Positions 55,869 through 63,478 of a stretch of DNA of 64,000 nucleotides are shown piece after piece. Positions within the stretch are counted from its first letter, which is position 1. Each line of letters starts with the position of its first letter. The notes under the pieces are model-generated. The model worked only from the letters and a program-made list of their open reading frames with translations, was not told where the DNA came from and ran no database searches. Location of the stretch: contig JBJXGH010000037.1 in assembly GCA_046153685.1 (NCBI GenBank), positions 38,323 through 102,322 of the forward strand, written 5' to 3'. Position numbers and translations under genes: made by a program. The stretch comes from Alphaproteobacteria bacterium (GTDB lineage: Bacteria > Pseudomonadota > Alphaproteobacteria > CADEGL01).

Positions 55869-55962
55869 CTGTTAGAGCCATTTATTGATATGTTGGCATG
55901 GGGGTCAAGGCGAATGCGGCCTTCCCTTTCGCGCCGTGTCTGTTCGGAGCCTTGCCGTGACG

Positions 55963-56577
55963 ATGCTGCTCGATTTACAGGTTTTTGAGTTGCTGTGCTC
56001 GCGGCTGTGCCATGACTTGGTTAGCCCAGTCGGCGCCATCAACAACGGCGTCGAGCTCTTGGCGGAGCTGGGGCCGGACGAGGAGGCCTTGAAACTTGTT
56101 GGGCAGAGCGCGCAAGCGGCCGCCCGTCGTCTCAAGTTCTATCGCGTGGCGTACGGCGCGGCGGGCGCGGCGGAATTGCCCATGGACGAATTGCGCGACC
56201 TGATGACCGGGCTTCTCGTCGATCGCCATATCGCGCTCGGCTGGGACAGCCGCGGGGCCATACCCTTCGGCCTGCCGGGCCGGCGCTTACTGTTGAATAT
56301 GCTGGCATTTGCCGCGGAATCCCTGCCGCGTGGCGGCACCATCCATGTCGGCTCGCGCGAGGCGCCCGAAGCCATATTGCTGGCCGCCGAGGGCGCGGGC
56401 GCGACCCTACCCGAGGGCGCCCAAGCCGCGATCGACGGCTCGGCCCCACCTGGCGAACTAACCGCGCGTACGATCCAGGCCTATTTCGCTTCCAGGCTTG
56501 CCGAGGCGCTGGGCGCGCGGTTGTCGGTTTCGTGCACGCCTGGCCGCCTCGCCATCATCGCCGAGACCGGCAGCTAA
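55963..56577 (+). CDS. chpT: Histidine phosphotransferase ChpT
   Basis: LLCSRLCHDLVSPVGAINNGVELL, L-FYR-AYG, LPRGG; start 55957 or 55963. Confidence 0.93.
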   Translation: MLLDLQVFELLCSRLCHDLVSPVGAINNGVELLAELGPDEEALKLVGQSAQAAARRLKFYRVAYGAAGAAELPMDELRDLMTGLLVDRHIALGWDSRGAIPFGLPGRRLLLNMLAFAAESLPRGGTIHVGSREAPEAILLAAEGAGATLPEGAQAAIDGSAPPGELTARTIQAYFASRLAEALGARLSVSCTPGRLAIIAETGS

Positions 56578-56677: not shown

Positions 56678-59629
56678 ATGGATGAATTGCTTAAGGACTT
56701 TCTCACCGAGACCAATGAGAGCCTTGAAGTCCTCGATGTCGAGATCGTCAGGCTGGAACGGAACCCCAACGACCCCGAATTGCTCGGCAACATCTTCCGC
56801 CTCTTCCATACCGTGAAGGGCACTTGCGGCTTCCTCGGCCTGAGCCGGCTCGAGGCCGTGGCGCACGCCGCCGAGAACGTGCTCGGCAAATTCCGAGACG
56901 GCGAGATCAAGGTCACCGGCGACGCTGTGACGCTGATCCTGGCGTCCCTCGACTGCATCAAGACTCTTCTCGCCCAGCTTGAGGCGACCGAAGCGGAACC
57001 CGCTGGAGACGATAAGAATCTTATCGACCGCTTGAACGGATTCATCACGGCATCGAAGGCTGCATCGGCGCCAGCGGCAAGCGAGCCAGCGGCGCTCCCG
57101 GTCAAGCAGGCCACGCTTTACGATCGGCTCGGCGGAATGGGCGTAATCGATGCGGCGGTCGAGCTGTTTTACAAACGCGTGATGGCCGATCCGGAACTGA
57201 AGCCCTTCTTCCAGGGCGTCAACATGGACGTCGTCCAGGTGCAGCAAGTCGCCTTTCTGGCGCAGGCCTTCGGCGGCCCGCAGGGCTTTGACGGCCCCGA
57301 TCAAATGGAAGTGCACAAGGAGATGGCGGCGCGCGGTCTCAATGGCGCGCATTTCGACGCAGCCGCACTGCACCTCGAAGCAGCCTTGAAGCAGATGGAA
57401 GTCTCCGAGGATATGGCCGCGGAGATATTCGCCCTTGCCGCCAACGCCCGCGCCGCTGTGCTCGGCGAGGCGGGTCGTGCCGTTGGCGACGAGGTTTCGC
57501 TGGAGGGCGATAAGACGAAGTTCGACGACACGGAGCGCCCGGGTGCCAAGGCCGCGATCGACAAACCTGAAGCCGCCAAGCAATCGGCGGTCTCCCAGCA
57601 GAGCATCCGCGTCAATGTCGATCAGCTCGAAAGTCTGATGACGCTGGCCAGCGAGATGGTGCTGACGCGCAACCAGCTCCTGCAAGTATTGCGGACGCGC
57701 AAGGACAGCGAATTCGCCAGCCCGTTGCAGCGTCTGAATCAACTCACGACCGAGCTGCAGGAAGGCGTGATGAAGACCCGCATGCAGCCGATCGGCAATG
57801 CCTGGCAGAAACTGCCGCGCATCGTCCGCGACCTGTCGCGCGAATTGGACAAGAAAATCGACCTGCAGATGTCTGGCGCGGATACCGAGCTCGACCGCCA
57901 GGTCCTTGAACTGATCAAGGACCCGCTGACCCACATGGTCCGCAACTCGGGCGATCACGGTCTCGAGACTCCGGCGGGCCGCCTTGCCGCCGGCAAGCCT
58001 GAAACCGGGCGCATCAGCCTGTCCGCGCGGCACGAGGGCGGGCATATCGTCATCGAAGTCGGCGATGATGGCCGCGGACTCAATACCGAGCGCATCAGGG
58101 CCAAAGCCGTGTCCAACGGCCTGGTTTCGCAGGCCGAGGCCGAGACGCTGACCGATCGCCAAGTTCATCAGTTTATTTTCCATGCAGGCTTGTCGACCGC
58201 GGAAAAGGTCACGGCCGTATCGGGGCGCGGCGTGGGCATGGACGTGGTCCGCTCGAACATCGAGAAGATCGGCGGCGTGGTCGATGTCGCCTCGAAGGAG
58301 GGTGTGGGTTCGACCTTCACCATCAAGATTCCGCTAACCCTGGCCATCGTCTCGACGCTCATCGTCGAATGCGCCAAGGAACGATTCGCCATACCCCAGC
58401 TGTGCGTCCTCGAACTCGTGTGTACCTCGAGCGCCTCGGAAAACACCGTCGAATACATCGGTGGAACGCCGGTGCTGCGTCTGCGCGAGCGCCTTCTGCC
58501 GCTCGTCTCGTTGCGCGACCTCCTGAAGCTCGAGGCCTCGACCGACGCCGTGAACGACGGCAACTTCATCGTCGTCACCCAGGTCGGAAACTCAAATTTC
58601 GGAATCATGGTGGACCGGGTCTTCGACACCGAGGAAATCGTCGTAAAGCCGGTTGCGCCGGTGCTGCGCGACATCGCCATGTTCTCGGGCAATACCATTC
58701 TCGGCGATGGCGGCGTGGTCATGATCCTGGATGCCAACGGCATGGCCGCCGCTACGGGCGAGCTGGCCATCACCAAGACCGAGACGGCGGTCGAGAAAGT
58801 CGTTGCAGCCGATGCCTCGGACCGCATTCCACTCCTGCTGTTCCGCGCCGGCGCCGGCACGGCCAAGGCCGTGCCGTTGTCTCTCGTCGCGCGCCTGGAG
58901 GAAATCGAGGTCGGCAAGATCGAGTGGTCCGACGGCAAGCCCGTCGTGCAATACCGCGACCAACTCATGCCGCTGATTCCGATCGATAGTGAGCACGCTA
59001 TGCGCGAGACTGGACGCCAGCCCGTGCTCGTGTTCACGGACGGCGATAAATCCATCGGCCTCTTGGTCGATGAAATCGTCGATATCGTCGAACAGCGCCT
59101 GACCGTCGAGCTTACGGCGCGGCGCGAGGGTTACTTAGGCACAGCGGTGCTCGACGGCCATCCGACCGAAATCGTCGATGTCGGCCATTACGTCGGCCTT
59201 GCCTTCCAGAAGTGGTTCGCCAAAAGCGCGCGACCCACGGATGGCGCGGAGCGCAACGTGCTCTTGGTCGATGACAGTCCTTTCTTCCGCAATCTCCTGA
59301 CGCCGCTGCTTTCGGCGGTGGGTTACTCGGTCACGACGGCAACTTCCGGCAACGAAGCGCTGGAGTTGTGCGCGGCTGGCCGGACCTTCGACGTCATCAT
59401 CTCCGACATCGAGATGCCTGGCATGAGCGGCTTTGAGTTGGCCGAGACGTTGAAGCGCGATAAGCGCTGGCGTGACGTGCCATTGGTGGCTTTGTCGGGG
59501 CGCACGGCCGAGGCTGATCTCGATCGCGGCCGCCGCGCGGGCTTCACGGACTACGTGGCCAAGTTCGACCGTGATGCGCTTCTGGCCTCGCTTAAGGACA
59601 CGCTTGCCAATCTAGGAGACGCCGCATGA
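56678..59629 (+). CDS. cheA: Hybrid chemotaxis histidine kinase CheA (Hpt - truncated globin - dimer - HATPase - 2x CheW - REC)
   Basis: FHTVKG Hpt; IRVNV--LE-LM dimer; HMVRNSGDHG, DDGRG, SGRGVGMDVV; LLVDDS...SDIEMP REC. Confidence 0.96.
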   Translation: MDELLKDFLTETNESLEVLDVEIVRLERNPNDPELLGNIFRLFHTVKGTCGFLGLSRLEAVAHAAENVLGKFRDGEIKVTGDAVTLILASLDCIKTLLAQLEATEAEPAGDDKNLIDRLNGFITASKAASAPAASEPAALPVKQATLYDRLGGMGVIDAAVELFYKRVMADPELKPFFQGVNMDVVQVQQVAFLAQAFGGPQGFDGPDQMEVHKEMAARGLNGAHFDAAALHLEAALKQMEVSEDMAAEIFALAANARAAVLGEAGRAVGDEVSLEGDKTKFDDTERPGAKAAIDKPEAAKQSAVSQQSIRVNVDQLESLMTLASEMVLTRNQLLQVLRTRKDSEFASPLQRLNQLTTELQEGVMKTRMQPIGNAWQKLPRIVRDLSRELDKKIDLQMSGADTELDRQVLELIKDPLTHMVRNSGDHGLETPAGRLAAGKPETGRISLSARHEGGHIVIEVGDDGRGLNTERIRAKAVSNGLVSQAEAETLTDRQVHQFIFHAGLSTAEKVTAVSGRGVGMDVVRSNIEKIGGVVDVASKEGVGSTFTIKIPLTLAIVSTLIVECAKERFAIPQLCVLELVCTSSASENTVEYIGGTPVLRLRERLLPLVSLRDLLKLEASTDAVNDGNFIVVTQVGNSNFGIMVDRVFDTEEIVVKPVAPVLRDIAMFSGNTILGDGGVVMILDANGMAAATGELAITKTETAVEKVVAADASDRIPLLLFRAGAGTAKAVPLSLVARLEEIEVGKIEWSDGKPVVQYRDQLMPLIPIDSEHAMRETGRQPVLVFTDGDKSIGLLVDEIVDIVEQRLTVELTARREGYLGTAVLDGHPTEIVDVGHYVGLAFQKWFAKSARPTDGAERNVLLVDDSPFFRNLLTPLLSAVGYSVTTATSGNEALELCAAGRTFDVIISDIEMPGMSGFELAETLKRDKRWRDVPLVALSGRTAEADLDRGRRAGFTDYVAKFDRDALLASLKDTLANLGDAA
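57113..57466 (+). other. Group I (2/2) truncated haemoglobin domain in frame within CheA
   Basis: TLYDRLGG, FY (B9-B10), PFF (CD1), AFGGP, EVH (His F8), GLNGAHFDA. Confidence 0.9.
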
Positions 59630-60093
59630 CCCAGCCAGCCAATGACGACGCGATCGGCACGCGCGACCTTCTGACGGTTGCGGTCAATGGCCAAAGTTTC
59701 GGCCTGCCCGTGCTCGCCGTACAGGACGTACTGGGCCCGCAACGCATCACGCGCATCCCGCTCGCCCCGCGCGAGATCATGGGCGCGCTCAATTTGCGCG
59801 GACGCATCGTGACGGCGGTCGATTTGCGCCGCCGACTGTCGATGCCCGACCGCGTTCCCGATGCGCAGCACATGAGCGTGGTCGTCGATCATCACGGCGA
59901 ATACTACAGTGTGATCGTCGATAACGTGGGGGAGGTCTTGAGCCTCTCGCCCGAGGCCTTCGAGCACAATCCGACCACCCTCGATCCGCGGCTTAAGGCC
60001 GTGGCCGACGGGGTGTACCGCCTGAACAAGGACATTCTGGTGGTTCTCGATGTCCGCCGCCTGCTCGAAATCACCCGGGAGAAAGCCGCCTGA
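59626..60093 (+). CDS. cheW: Chemotaxis adaptor CheW
   Basis: FGLPV--VQDV, IPLAP--I-G-LNLRGRIVT--DLR, VD-VGEV. Confidence 0.95.
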   Translation: MTQPANDDAIGTRDLLTVAVNGQSFGLPVLAVQDVLGPQRITRIPLAPREIMGALNLRGRIVTAVDLRRRLSMPDRVPDAQHMSVVVDHHGEYYSVIVDNVGEVLSLSPEAFEHNPTTLDPRLKAVADGVYRLNKDILVVLDVRRLLEITREKAA

Positions 60094-60133
60094 TGGCGAC
60101 GTGTATCCGCCGCCATCGAGAAGGGTAAGCACC

Positions 60134-60499
60134 ATGAAGTCGTGTCTCATCGTTGACGACTCGAGTGTCGTGCGCAAAGTCGCGCGTCGAATCCTTGAGG
60201 ATTTGAAGTTTCGCATCGCCGAGGCGGCCAATGGCCAATTGGCAATGGACGAGTGCGTGCGCGAGATGCCCGACGTGATCCTTCTCGACTGGAACATGCC
60301 CGTGATGAACGGTCTTGAATTTCTCGGCAAGCTGCGCGCGCATTCGGGCGGCGACAAGCCGGTGGTGGTGTTTTGCACGACCGAGAACGATATCGGTCAC
60401 ATCCAGAAGGCAATCGCCGCAGGCGCGAACGAATACATCATGAAGCCGTTCGACAGCGAGATCATCCAGTCAAAGTTCGCGCAGGCCGGACTAGTTTAA
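60134..60499 (+). CDS. cheY: Chemotaxis response regulator CheY
   Basis: CLIVDDS, LLDWNMP, FCTTEN, EYIMKPF. Confidence 0.93.
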   Translation: MKSCLIVDDSSVVRKVARRILEDLKFRIAEAANGQLAMDECVREMPDVILLDWNMPVMNGLEFLGKLRAHSGGDKPVVVFCTTENDIGHIQKAIAAGANEYIMKPFDSEIIQSKFAQAGLV

Positions 60500-61632
60500 T
60501 GTTAGCAAAAAATGCCGCCGCCAAAATCGCGCCGAGCGGCGCGTGCCGCGTCATGGTCTGCGACGATTCCGCGGTGTTTCGGACCGTGCTCAAGCGCGCC
60601 CTCGAGGCCGATCCCGAGATTCTCGTGACCGCTGTTGCGTGCAATGGCCAGGAAGCGATCGCGTTCGCCCAGCGTGAGACGTTCGACGTGGTCGTACTCG
60701 ACATCGAAATGCCCATCATGGATGGCCTGACGGCCCTGCCAAAGATTCTGGCGGCGCAGCCCAGGACCAAGATCGTGATCGCATCCACGCTTACCCACCG
60801 CAATGCCTCGATCAGCCTTCAAGCGCTTGAGCGCGGCGCGGCCGATTACGTGACCAAGCCGACGGCGACGAGTTACATGTCGGGCGGAGGCGATGATTTC
60901 CGCCGCGAGCTGGTTGCCAAGGTTCGCGCCCTCGCGGGTAGAGGCGCGCCGACGGTCGGGGCCGCGCGGGCGATGCCGGCGGTTACCGGCGCGCCCCCGA
61001 TGGCTAAGGGCGGCAGGGATTTCGTGCTGCGCAAATCGACGTTGCGCCGGGTCGAGGCGCTGGCCATTGGCAGTTCGACCGGAGGGCCGCAGGCGTTACA
61101 GACGCTTTTGGTCGGCCTCAAGAACGACCTCAAGCGGGTACCCGTGCTGATCACCCAGCACATGCCACCGACCTTCACCAAGATATTGGCCGAGCACATT
61201 TCCCGCTCGACAGGGCTTCGCGCGAGCGAGGGTATCGATGGCGAATCGGTGTGCGCCGGGCGGATTTACGTGGCGCCGGGGGATTTCCACATGGAAGTCG
61301 TGCGCCGGGGTACGGAGGTGACGCTGCGCCTTCATCAGGGCGAGCGCGAGAATTTCTGCCGGCCGGCGGTCGATCCAATGTTGCGCAGCATGGTCACGTG
61401 CTGGTACGGCGCGGTGTTGACGGTCATCCTGACCGGCATGGGGCAGGATGGAATGAACGGCGCGCGCAACCTGGTCGAGGCGGGCGGCACCGTGGTCGCC
61501 CAGGACGAAGACAGCAGCGTCGTCTGGGGCATGCCCGGTGCGGTCGCCATGGCGGGCTTGTGCTCGGCGGTCATGCCCATCGATAAATTGGCCGAGCATG
61601 TCCGGGGTGTCCTGGCCGGTAGGGCAGGATGA
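60499..61632 (+). CDS. cheB: Protein-glutamate methylesterase CheB
   Basis: REC (LDIEMP) plus GSSTGG, QHMP, RPAVD, LTGMG-DG, VWGMP. Confidence 0.96.
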   Translation: MLAKNAAAKIAPSGACRVMVCDDSAVFRTVLKRALEADPEILVTAVACNGQEAIAFAQRETFDVVVLDIEMPIMDGLTALPKILAAQPRTKIVIASTLTHRNASISLQALERGAADYVTKPTATSYMSGGGDDFRRELVAKVRALAGRGAPTVGAARAMPAVTGAPPMAKGGRDFVLRKSTLRRVEALAIGSSTGGPQALQTLLVGLKNDLKRVPVLITQHMPPTFTKILAEHISRSTGLRASEGIDGESVCAGRIYVAPGDFHMEVVRRGTEVTLRLHQGERENFCRPAVDPMLRSMVTCWYGAVLTVILTGMGQDGMNGARNLVEAGGTVVAQDEDSSVVWGMPGAVAMAGLCSAVMPIDKLAEHVRGVLAGRAG

Positions 61633-62471
61633 ACCAAGTCGAATTCCAATTCGTGCGCGATCTTGTGCGCCAGCATTCGGGTCTGGTGCTGACCGACGAC
61701 AAGCATTACCTCGTTGAAAACCGGTTGATGCCCCTGGCGCGCCAGCGCCAACTCAAGGACGTCGAGGAATTGGCGCGTACCTTGCGCACGGGCGGCGACC
61801 GCGAGCTGATCCGCCTCGTCGTCGAGGCGATGACGACCAATGAATCGTTGTTTTTCCGCGACGGCCGGCCGTTCGAGCAGTTGAAGACGCTGATTCTGCC
61901 GCGCCTGTTCAAGGCCCGCGCGAACACCCGAACCTTGCGGATCTGGAGCGCCGCGTGCTCGACGGGGCAGGAACCATATTCGATCGCCATGACGATCAAG
62001 GAATTGGGATTGCCGCTAGGCGATTGGCGCATCGAAATCCTCGGCACGGATCTGTCCTCCGAGGTTCTGGAGAAGGCGCGCTCGGGCATCTATTCGCAGT
62101 TCGAGGTCCAGCGCGGCATGCCGATCCAGATGCTCGTGAAGTATTTCAAGCAGTCGGCCGAGCGTTGGCAGGTCGACAGCGCATTGCGCGCCATGGTGCG
62201 CTACCAGGCGTTTAACCTGTTGAGCGACCCGGCAACCCTCGGGCGCTTCGATATCGTGTTTTGCCGCAATGTTTTGATCTATTTCGACAACCCGACCAAG
62301 GCCAAGGTTCTGACCGGAATCGCCGCGAACATGGCCGATGACGGTGTCTTATTCCTGGGCGGAGCCGAGACCGTTTTCGGCATCACCGATCGCTTTGCCC
62401 CGGTTCCGGGCGAGCGGGGCACCTACGCCTGCGCGCGCGCGGGTGCTGCATCCTTGCGGCAAGCGGTCTAG
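61629..62471 (+). CDS. cheR: Chemotaxis methyltransferase CheR
   Basis: TTNES-FFRD, IWSAACSTGQEPYS, FDIVFCRNVLIYF. Confidence 0.96.
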   Translation: MNQVEFQFVRDLVRQHSGLVLTDDKHYLVENRLMPLARQRQLKDVEELARTLRTGGDRELIRLVVEAMTTNESLFFRDGRPFEQLKTLILPRLFKARANTRTLRIWSAACSTGQEPYSIAMTIKELGLPLGDWRIEILGTDLSSEVLEKARSGIYSQFEVQRGMPIQMLVKYFKQSAERWQVDSALRAMVRYQAFNLLSDPATLGRFDIVFCRNVLIYFDNPTKAKVLTGIAANMADDGVLFLGGAETVFGITDRFAPVPGERGTYACARAGAASLRQAV

Positions 62472-62599: not shown

Positions 62600-63316
62600 T
62601 CAGCGCGCTCCGGCGGCCAGGCGCTTTGGCATCTCGACCGCGGCGGGATCGCGCAGCACGTAGCCGCGACCCCAAACCGTTTCGATATAGCTGTCGCCGC
62701 CGGTTGCCGAAGTGATCTTCTTGCGCAGCTTGCATACGAAGACGTCGATGATCTTCAGTTCCGGCTCATCCATCCCGCCATACAGGTGGTTGAGGAACAT
62801 TTCTTTCGTCAGCGTCGTACCCTTTCGCAGCGAAAGCAGTTCAAGAATGCCGTACTCCTTGCCCGTGAGATGCACGGGCTGGCCTTCGACTTCAACCGTC
62901 CGGGTATCGAGATTGAGAACCATCCGACCGGTCTTGATCGTCGATTCAGCATGACCCTTCGAGCGGCGCACGATCGCCTGGATGCGCGCGAGCAGTTCGC
63001 GCTTGTCGAAGGGCTTGGTCAGATAATCATCGGCGCCGAAGCCCAGGCCCTTGAGCTTGTTGTCGAGCTGGGCCAGCCCGGAGAGGATCAATATGGGCGT
63101 CTGGATGCGCGCGGCGCGCATGCGGCGCAGGACCTCGTAGCCGTCGATGTCCGGCAGCATGAGATCGAGGATGATCAGGTCATAGTCGTAAAGCTTGCCG
63201 ATCTAGAGGCCGTCCTCGCCGAGATCGGTGGTATCGCACACGTAGTTTTCCGATTTCAGCATCAGCTCGATGCTCTTGGCGGTGGCGCTATCGTCTTCGA
63301 CCAATAAAACACGCAT
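62600..63316 (-). pseudogene. ctrA: Response regulator CtrA, interrupted by in-frame TAG at codon 38
   Basis: [23 protein letters not shown]...[22 protein letters not shown]...LTGKEY...[23 protein letters not shown]; TAG at 63203..63205. Confidence 0.9.
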
Positions 63317-63334
63317 CGGCGACCCTCGTTCAGC

Positions 63335-63478
63335 TTTACACGCATTTAACCATAGGGGAGCGAGCTTGGGAGAAAATGGTTAACAAAGGCTTTAACCAAT
63401 TGCCCGAGATGCCGAGTCCTAAAATAATCCCAATTTTTCAAATACTTGAATAAATACCCTGGATTTACCCAGCCTTAA
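63335..63478. promoter_or_regulatory. Cluster of CtrA-box-like sites in the divergent ctrA/fliI promoter
   Basis: TTTA-N7-TTAACCAT (63335..63353), GGTTAA-N8-TTAACC (63378..63397), TTTA-N7-TTAA (63464..63478). Confidence 0.65.

Follow-up and report, generated by a model that had tools for sequence, protein, structure and literature searches.

The window analysed here is a stretch of 64,000 nucleotides from an alphaproteobacterial genome (G000; 3.4 Mb in 193 contigs, 96% complete). It contains a chemotaxis operon whose hybrid CheA kinase carries a truncated haemoglobin (trHb) within its own chain (Table 1). The cheA gene is a single open reading frame with six Pfam domains above the curated cut-offs, and 22 aligned homologues, which begin with MDDLL, support its start at position 56678 (MDELL). 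The Hpt (P1), dimerisation (P3), HATPase_c (P4) and CheW-like P5 domains follow one another in CheA order, all four above their Pfam cut-offs. The phospho-accepting histidine of P1, His44 in the motif HTVKG (codon 56807-56809), is invariant in the homologue alignment. In the translation all four kinase boxes (N, G1, F and G2) read as intact, as do the Asp, Ser and Lys positions of the receiver (REC) domain. An earlier note on this DNA had called the kinase, CheW and REC motifs intact, and the translation and Pfam bear this out. The protein missed the NCBIfam CheA equivalog cut-offs (NF041336, 436.7 against 950; NF007835, 375 against 793). These are, going by their names, Halo-type and PRK10547 CheA models; that a hybrid belonging to a different class scores below them is to be expected and is no argument against CheA identity.

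Table 1. Features of the globin-bearing CheA and its operon, in window coordinates.
Feature	Position	Strand	Basis and remarks
chpT-like histidine phosphotransferase (PF10090)	55885..56577	+	Pfam E 8.8e-22; operon head
cheA hybrid kinase, 983 aa (P0001): Hpt, truncated globin, P3, P4, P5, second CheW-like, REC	56678..59629	+	
P1/Hpt	56684..56986	+	Pfam Hpt, residues 3-103, E 1.5e-15
Linker 1, residues 105-145, Ala/Pro-rich (A 27%, P 10%)	56990..57112	+	composition
Group-I (N-type) truncated 2/2 globin domain	57113..57466	+	Pfam PF01152, solved-structure matches, residue table, Atlas model
Linker 2, residues 263-306, charged, low complexity	57464..57595	+	composition
P3 dimerisation domain	57596..57778	+	Pfam H-kinase_dim, residues 307-367
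P4 ATP-binding kinase domain	57920..58339	+	Pfam HATPase_c, residues 415-554
P5 CheW-like domain	58358..58747	+	Pfam CheW, residues 561-690
Second CheW-like domain	58832..59185	+	Pfam CheW E 1.3e-7 on 58778-59260
C-terminal receiver (REC)	59258..59593	+	Pfam Response_reg, residues 861-972, E 5e-22
cheW	59626..60093	+	Pfam CheW E 2.2e-30
cheY (as listed; true start probably later)	60050..60499	+	Response_reg E 3.1e-28
cheB (as listed; true start probably later)	60373..61632	+	CheB_methylest E 2.7e-56, plus REC
cheR	61629..62471	+	Pfam CheR E 7.7e-60, plus CheR_N
OmpR-type response regulator, convergent, in-frame TAG at 63203-63205	62600..63379	-	REC and Trans_reg_C, stop-to-stop frames

The domain between P1 and P3 was identified as a globin by several comparisons. 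Bac_globin (PF01152) matched residues 146-258 with a score of 58.3 bits (E 1.1e-15; cut-off 21), and the match covers profile positions 1-116 of 121. When a stretch of 126 residues was compared with solved structures, the best match was the Synechocystis cyanoglobin GlbN (2hz2, E 2e-27), followed by Chlamydomonas THB1 (8e-27) and M. tuberculosis HbN (7e-19). The best 20 solved matches were all group-1/N globins, with E values from 2e-27 to 1e-8, whereas the globins of Geobacillus and Thermobifida, both of group II, matched only at 2e-7 and 2e-4. Because the top matches are group-1/N and the others far weaker, we assigned the domain to group I rather than to group II or III. The Atlas predicted model of residues 141-264 has the 2-on-2 fold, with TM scores of 0.88-0.90 to group-1 truncated-haemoglobin models. 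The claim that a complete, in-frame group I 2/2 globin lies between the Hpt and dimerisation domains is thus confirmed by Pfam and the solved structures, and related CheAs have only a linker there.

Alignment to GlbN, with the helix numbering of GlbN, places Tyr165 at B10 (57170-57172), Phe178 at CD1, Val186 at E7, Gln189 at E10 and Gln190 at E11. The proximal F8 residue is His213 (codon 57314-57316) in both the alignment and the column table. Both Gly-Gly hinge motifs are present, at residues 152-153 and 199-200. These assignments had been made by hand in the earlier note, and the alignment reproduced each of them. GlbN, THB1 and HbN have the Gly-Gly motifs, Tyr B10, Phe CD1, Gln E11 and His F8 in common with the window globin but are free-standing proteins, whereas the window globin is fused. 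The window globin also lacks the His E10 of GlbN and has Gln instead, so the earlier description of an HbN-like TyrB10-GlnE11 pair without the GlbN distal histidine holds. Bis-histidyl coordination as in GlbN is presumably not to be expected here.

The fusion differs in kind from the globin sensors familiar from chemotaxis. HemAT and other globin-coupled sensors (GCS) also couple a haem globin to the chemotaxis pathway, presumably for O2 sensing. However, in HemAT a 3/3 sensor globin of the protoglobin family stands at the N-terminus of a receptor, whereas the window protein is a kinase with an internal 2/2 truncated globin held by flexible linkers. Protoglobin (PF11563) had no Pfam match in the window protein. 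With a 2/2 globin of the T family at an internal position, the protein falls outside the GCS (S family), but its globin may work like a GCS without being a member.

A word-indexed protein search with residues 120-300 found one homologue, P0002, a yield that reflects the limit of the method and not rarity. The two proteins are 76% identical overall. Their globins are 64% identical without gaps, compared with 56% for linker 1, 30% for linker 2, 89% for P1 and 83-93% for the kinase core. The globin is therefore better conserved than either of the linkers that flank it, which we count in favour of a functional sensory module.

The layout is not confined to this pair. A six-frame search of 41 relatives found the order Hpt-globin-P3 in four genomes (G004, G007, G020 and G036) and in the window genome. 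An even sample of 401 genomes of the class gave a trHb in 99 of them. A trHb lay between P1 and P3 of a CheA in 28 of the 401 (29 matches, window included), which gives a measure of the taxonomic spread that the earlier note had proposed to check: the Hpt-globin-P3 CheA occurs in 17 family codes of the class. Of the 29 rows, 25 showed the Hpt motif, the P3 motif and the G1 box together; for the remaining four (L040, L051, L052 and L055) the piece examined did not contain the Hpt motif. Among the best 150 matches of a profile search of 1.84 billion representatives, 12 proteins matched unbroken over positions 1-375 and further partial matches ran through the globin region. Pfam, applied to 10 proteins of this search, returned Bac_globin together with CheA domains in four and no globin in five with degenerate inserts; P0016, P0017 and P0097 are among the degenerate inserts missed. 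Because Pfam misses several of these, the insert family is under-counted by domain databases.

Carriers with names are all metagenome-assembled genomes (MAGs): Hypericibacter, Dongiaceae, Emcibacter, Caulobacterales, Rhodobiaceae and one labelled Terriglobales. The last, L071 ("Terriglobales bacterium MAG"), holds a globin-CheA operon whose kinase core is near-identical to that of a Dongiaceae MAG although the bin is labelled Acidobacteriota, and its contig is probably mis-binned. In a phylum-wide sample, no out-of-class match in a long frame was found among the 150 matches listed, with 58 more beyond the listing; one family dominates the sample, and the result says little. Microvirga (L079 and L080) had come up as a carrier by match length and was ruled out, as the globin profile finds nothing there. 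Within family f1, three genomes (G001, G002 and G005) are without a CheA, and the single CheA of G004, like that of G007, is of the globin type. The window genome likewise yielded one CheA only, the globin-bearing one, together with one free trHb of 125 residues besides the fused globin. On the globin-domain tree a single clade (SH-aLRT 96) holds 12 of 13 free trHbs and none of the CheA inserts, whose branching the tree otherwise does not resolve. Since the free trHbs form a separate clade, the insert is no recent copy of the free trHb of its genome.

Globins were also found at other places in chemotaxis proteins. Three CheAs (L050 in G232, L040 in G375 and L061 in G071) have a second trHb within P5, where the CheW profile is split around the globin; P0005 was listed with them as a CheA with a second truncated globin inside P5. 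A 372-residue protein (L066:1510-2625, G291) consists of CheW followed at the C-terminus by a truncated globin whose pocket is intact (Tyr B10 and His F8). A trHb was combined with PAS in two proteins, and an Atlas cluster of 430 members combines a trHb with PAS and MCPsignal. Further, P0020 and three related clusters (P0155-P0157) are kinases of CheA1 type whose P1-P3 linker holds a canonical 3/3 globin (PF00042). Their kinase type and insertion site, between Hpt and P3, are those of the window protein, whereas the globin lineage is different. The best solved match of this 3/3 globin is Methylacidiphilum HGbRL (3wfw, E 6e-26), and elsewhere it is fused to signalling domains of MCPs (the methyl-accepting chemotaxis proteins; 7 proteins), to cyclases (2) and to MscS channels (3). 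Because different globin lineages occupy the identical linker site, 2/2 and 3/3 globins appear to have been captured independently. The best profile-search matches also included proteins made of truncated globins in tandem (P0003, P0004, P0008 and 12 others), with 4 to 13 domains and up to 1882 residues.

We found no report of a globin inside CheA in the literature, though the architecture may be among those listed by Hade et al. 2017 or Vinogradov et al. 2013. In its accessible text, a 2020 globin review gives bacterial chimeric T globins as T2 and T3 types (PMC7475203). The available text of a 2026 aerotaxis review describes receptor-borne globins only and does not contain the word "truncated" (PMC13401364). 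The closest case was a PAS-Bac_globin-MCP receptor of Corallococcus coralloides, Cc_4972, put forward in silico as an aerotaxis sensor in the part of the paper available (PMC6194562). Cc_4972 and the window protein have the same globin family, PF01152, on a chemotaxis protein, but in Cc_4972 the globin is on a receptor, upstream of the signalling domain, whereas here it is in the kinase; from the text available, both are known by sequence only. The layout is widespread and already in databases, and it seems to be uncharacterised. The earlier note knew of no characterised example, and this stands as far as the literature was covered, although as an architecture the fusion is not rare.

The operon around the kinase is of a known type, in which the globin may be present or absent. 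Among named loci that lack it, the nearest belong to Azospirillum, Nitrospirillum, Arenibaculum and Stellaceae, with P1 identities of 73-78% (Azospirillum, 75%), and on the kinase-core tree the window falls within a well-supported set of 49 rows that also contains Azospirillum loci. A chpT-like gene directly upstream, followed by cheA(REC)-cheW-cheY-cheB-cheR, was seen in 23 of the 30 related loci printed. Between P1 and P3 the globin-less orthologues have no P2 domain but a linker rich in Ala, Pro and Glu. Many of these linkers have a short conserved motif, (P)GEVSLDELEAAF, of the form ...SLDELEAAF. It was seen in L011, L012, L015, L017, L036 and L039, in the last two of which it lies upstream of a globin; the window protein lacks it.

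According to the text available, Che1 of A. brasilense belongs to class F5, modulates swimming speed and is predicted to pair with 38H receptors, and its CheA1 is reported to have two P5 domains (PMC6759762). The window operon and Azospirillum Che1 have in common the gene order cheA(REC)-cheW-cheY-cheB-cheR, two P5/CheW-like domains, a C-terminal REC, a chpT-like gene upstream (in the Azospirillum loci) and MCPs encoded away from the operon. Judged on these features, the window operon is probably of the Azospirillum Che1/F5 type. Unlike the window protein, the CheA1-like kinases of Azospirillum lack a globin between P1 and P3. An N-terminal TMX domain has been described for A. brasilense CheA1.

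No MCP gene lies in the operon, as had been noted before, or anywhere on the contig of the window. However, two MCPs are encoded elsewhere in the genome. One is a NIT-HAMP-MCPsignal protein of 747 residues (L149:218-2461, contig C81), and the other is cut by a contig end. The NIT domain of this sole complete MCP is a nitrate/nitrite-sensing domain, though nirK and nirS were not found in the genome. Among the 30 related loci printed, an MCP signalling match was found in 3. Because the globin-less orthologous operons are also without MCP genes, the lack of an MCP is a property of the operon type and not of the globin.

Taken together, we believe there is about an even chance that the globin is a haem-based O2, NO or redox input at the kinase, layered on receptor signalling. 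The protein would be a hybrid CheA that is coupled to receptors and resembles Azospirillum Che1 (F5) in type, with a haem-binding group-I truncated globin inserted in the P1-P3 linker. The globin would act as a sensory module that reads the ligand or redox state of its haem, with O2 as the first candidate and NO or Fe(II)/Fe(III) as alternatives. A change in haem state could alter the docking of the globin on adjacent parts of the kinase, and altered docking could in turn change the phosphorylation of P1 by P4 or the transfer of phosphate to CheY and the C-terminal REC. A gas or redox signal at the level of the kinase would then be added to the input of the MCPs, one of them of NIT type, which would arrive via CheW and P5 and be adapted by CheB and CheR. 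As output we infer flagellar motility, after the example of Che1. That the sole CheA of the genome carries the globin, with all globin determinants in frame, supports this model. We favour a signalling role because two globin lineages were captured at one site and because trHbs were repeatedly fused to CheA, CheW and MCPs. The earlier note had placed gas sensing at the kinase itself. This part gains comparative support from the 28 of 401 genomes, from the 3/3 globin at the same site and from the P5, CheW and MCP fusions, and it is weakened by the inserts that have lost the haem ligand.

Several observations weigh against a sensory role, among them the state of the haem pocket. Twelve of 31 P1-P3 inserts have lost His F8 and other pocket residues. 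In a wider set of 40 inserts, two duplicate genomes included, His F8 is kept in 23 and lost in 17. On the kinase-core tree the F8 state changed at least 8 times. The window groups there, with an SH-aLRT of 99, with L008 and L009, which belong to the same family and the nearest sister genus, and in the inserts of both B10 is Trp and F8 is Ile or Val; the ligand is thus lost in the closest relatives of the window. Since so many inserts have lost His F8, the domain can persist without a haem ligand. The presence of the insert requires 13 parsimony changes on the kinase-core tree, compared with a mean of 32.5 after shuffling, and at least 3 are forced by well-supported branches; judged from this tree, the insert has been gained or lost several times. 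The globin also hangs between two low-complexity linkers of about 40 residues, like P2, with no rigid path for a signal. Characterised group-I globins with TyrB10 and GlnE11 are mainly described as NO dioxygenases, not sensors. With nirK and nirS not found in the 96%-complete genome, no endogenous source of NO is seen.

The output has its own difficulty, as the assembly yielded no FliM, FlhA or FliG, so that motility is unconfirmed there. Because a flagellin gene lies at a contig end (L151, contig C163), flagella are likely in this organism, with the core genes missing from the assembly. The flagellin gene adjoins a TPR-GT41 glycosyltransferase and methyltransferases, and the neighbourhood looks like a flagellin-modification island.

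The alternative that survives best, though we think it rather unlikely, is that the globin is a structural or docking module: a P2-like bead that serves as a spacer or as a dock for CheY, CheB or REC, in which haem would only stabilise the fold. The globin occupies the exact position of P2 in a canonical CheA and has flexible linkers on both sides as P2 does, in a kinase type whose globin-less orthologues have no P2 of their own. The 12 inserts that lost His F8 and other pocket residues would fit this role, being still in frame and detectable, even if Pfam is blind to several. However, the other 19 of the 31 inserts keep His F8 (15 with Tyr B10 and 4 with Phe), and they come from distant families, which would be unexpected if haem chemistry were irrelevant. 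The capture at the identical site of an unrelated globin lineage, one that is otherwise fused to signalling outputs, also speaks against a mere dock.

An enzyme tethered to the signalling complex is improbable in our view. Here the globin would protect or condition the complex as an NO dioxygenase, peroxidase or O2 scavenger, with no regulation of the kinase. Its TyrB10/GlnE11/HisF8 pocket matches that of M. tuberculosis HbN, for which an enzymatic role is described. A Roseobacter trHb with peroxidase activity has been described in the accessible text of one study (PMC4319818). Yet the operon has no reductase partner, tethering would be of little clear use for gases that diffuse fast, and a free trHb is already encoded in the genome. 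The repeated fusions to chemotaxis proteins in particular likewise point to signalling and not to detoxification.

We consider it very improbable that the kinase alone senses O2 or NO and needs no MCPs, which was the receptor-independent system suggested in the earlier note. The lack of an MCP gene in the operon and on the contig had pointed this way, as does the fact that this CheA is the only one in the genome. The suggestion finds no support in view of cheW, cheB and cheR in the operon, the two CheW-like domains of the kinase and the two MCPs of the genome, and 27 of the 30 related loci printed are equally without an MCP match.

Finally, the idea that assembly or binning fused a free globin gene to cheA, for which the many contigs of the genome might speak, is refuted: contigs of other runs bridge both junctions, the identical layout is shared by dozens of independent genomes, of which some consist of 1-4 contigs, and the G+C content at third codon positions of the globin (0.77) is near that of the remainder of the gene (0.80-0.83). 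The junction between linker 1 and the globin is spanned by X1 (57037-57230, 0 mismatches) and X2 (57062-57286), and that between the globin and linker 2 by X1 (57282-57509), X2 (57360-57596) and X3 (57392-57736). These contigs are short and come from runs of two other studies, with 0-3 mismatches; one study may be the source of the assembly. The 13 runs listed include none of RNA. The junctions, which the earlier note had named as a point on which its proposal could fail, are thus secure. One X3 contig links P1 straight to P3 and omits the 746 bases from 56903 to 57650; on one side it has only 29 letters. This joint is probably the globin-less cheA of a related organism in the same sample.

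In the standard model of chemotaxis, receptors sense and CheA only relays. If our proposal of a kinase-level input is correct, a CheA with its own haem sensor would give alphaproteobacteria that are microaerophilic or live in gradients a second point of entry for a signal, likely O2. Nor would this be a mere curiosity, since the layout was found in about 7% of the species sampled from the class and the window genome has no other CheA. We would tentatively go further, with a confidence somewhat short of even: alphaproteobacterial CheAs of F5 type may serve as haem-based gas or redox sensors that gate P1, with 2/2 and 3/3 globins captured independently, and the globins in P5 and on CheW may extend this to a wider, unrecognised class of haem sensors embedded in the array. 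The inserts with an intact pocket, those that have lost the ligand, the 3/3-globin version and the P5 or CheW globins form a natural series for comparison.

The flanks of the operon offered some minor observations. The chpT-like gene at its head is the single PF10090 match in the window genome. On the other side, the convergent OmpR-type regulator resembles CtrA. Taking this regulator as CtrA-like, the order of the locus is chpT-che-ctrA, and a link between the REC domain of CheA and ChpT is conceivable. The in-frame TAG of the CtrA-like gene falls between "...DLGEDGL" and "IGKLYDYD...". It could be a sequencing or consensus error, or the gene could be a real pseudogene of a normally essential regulator.

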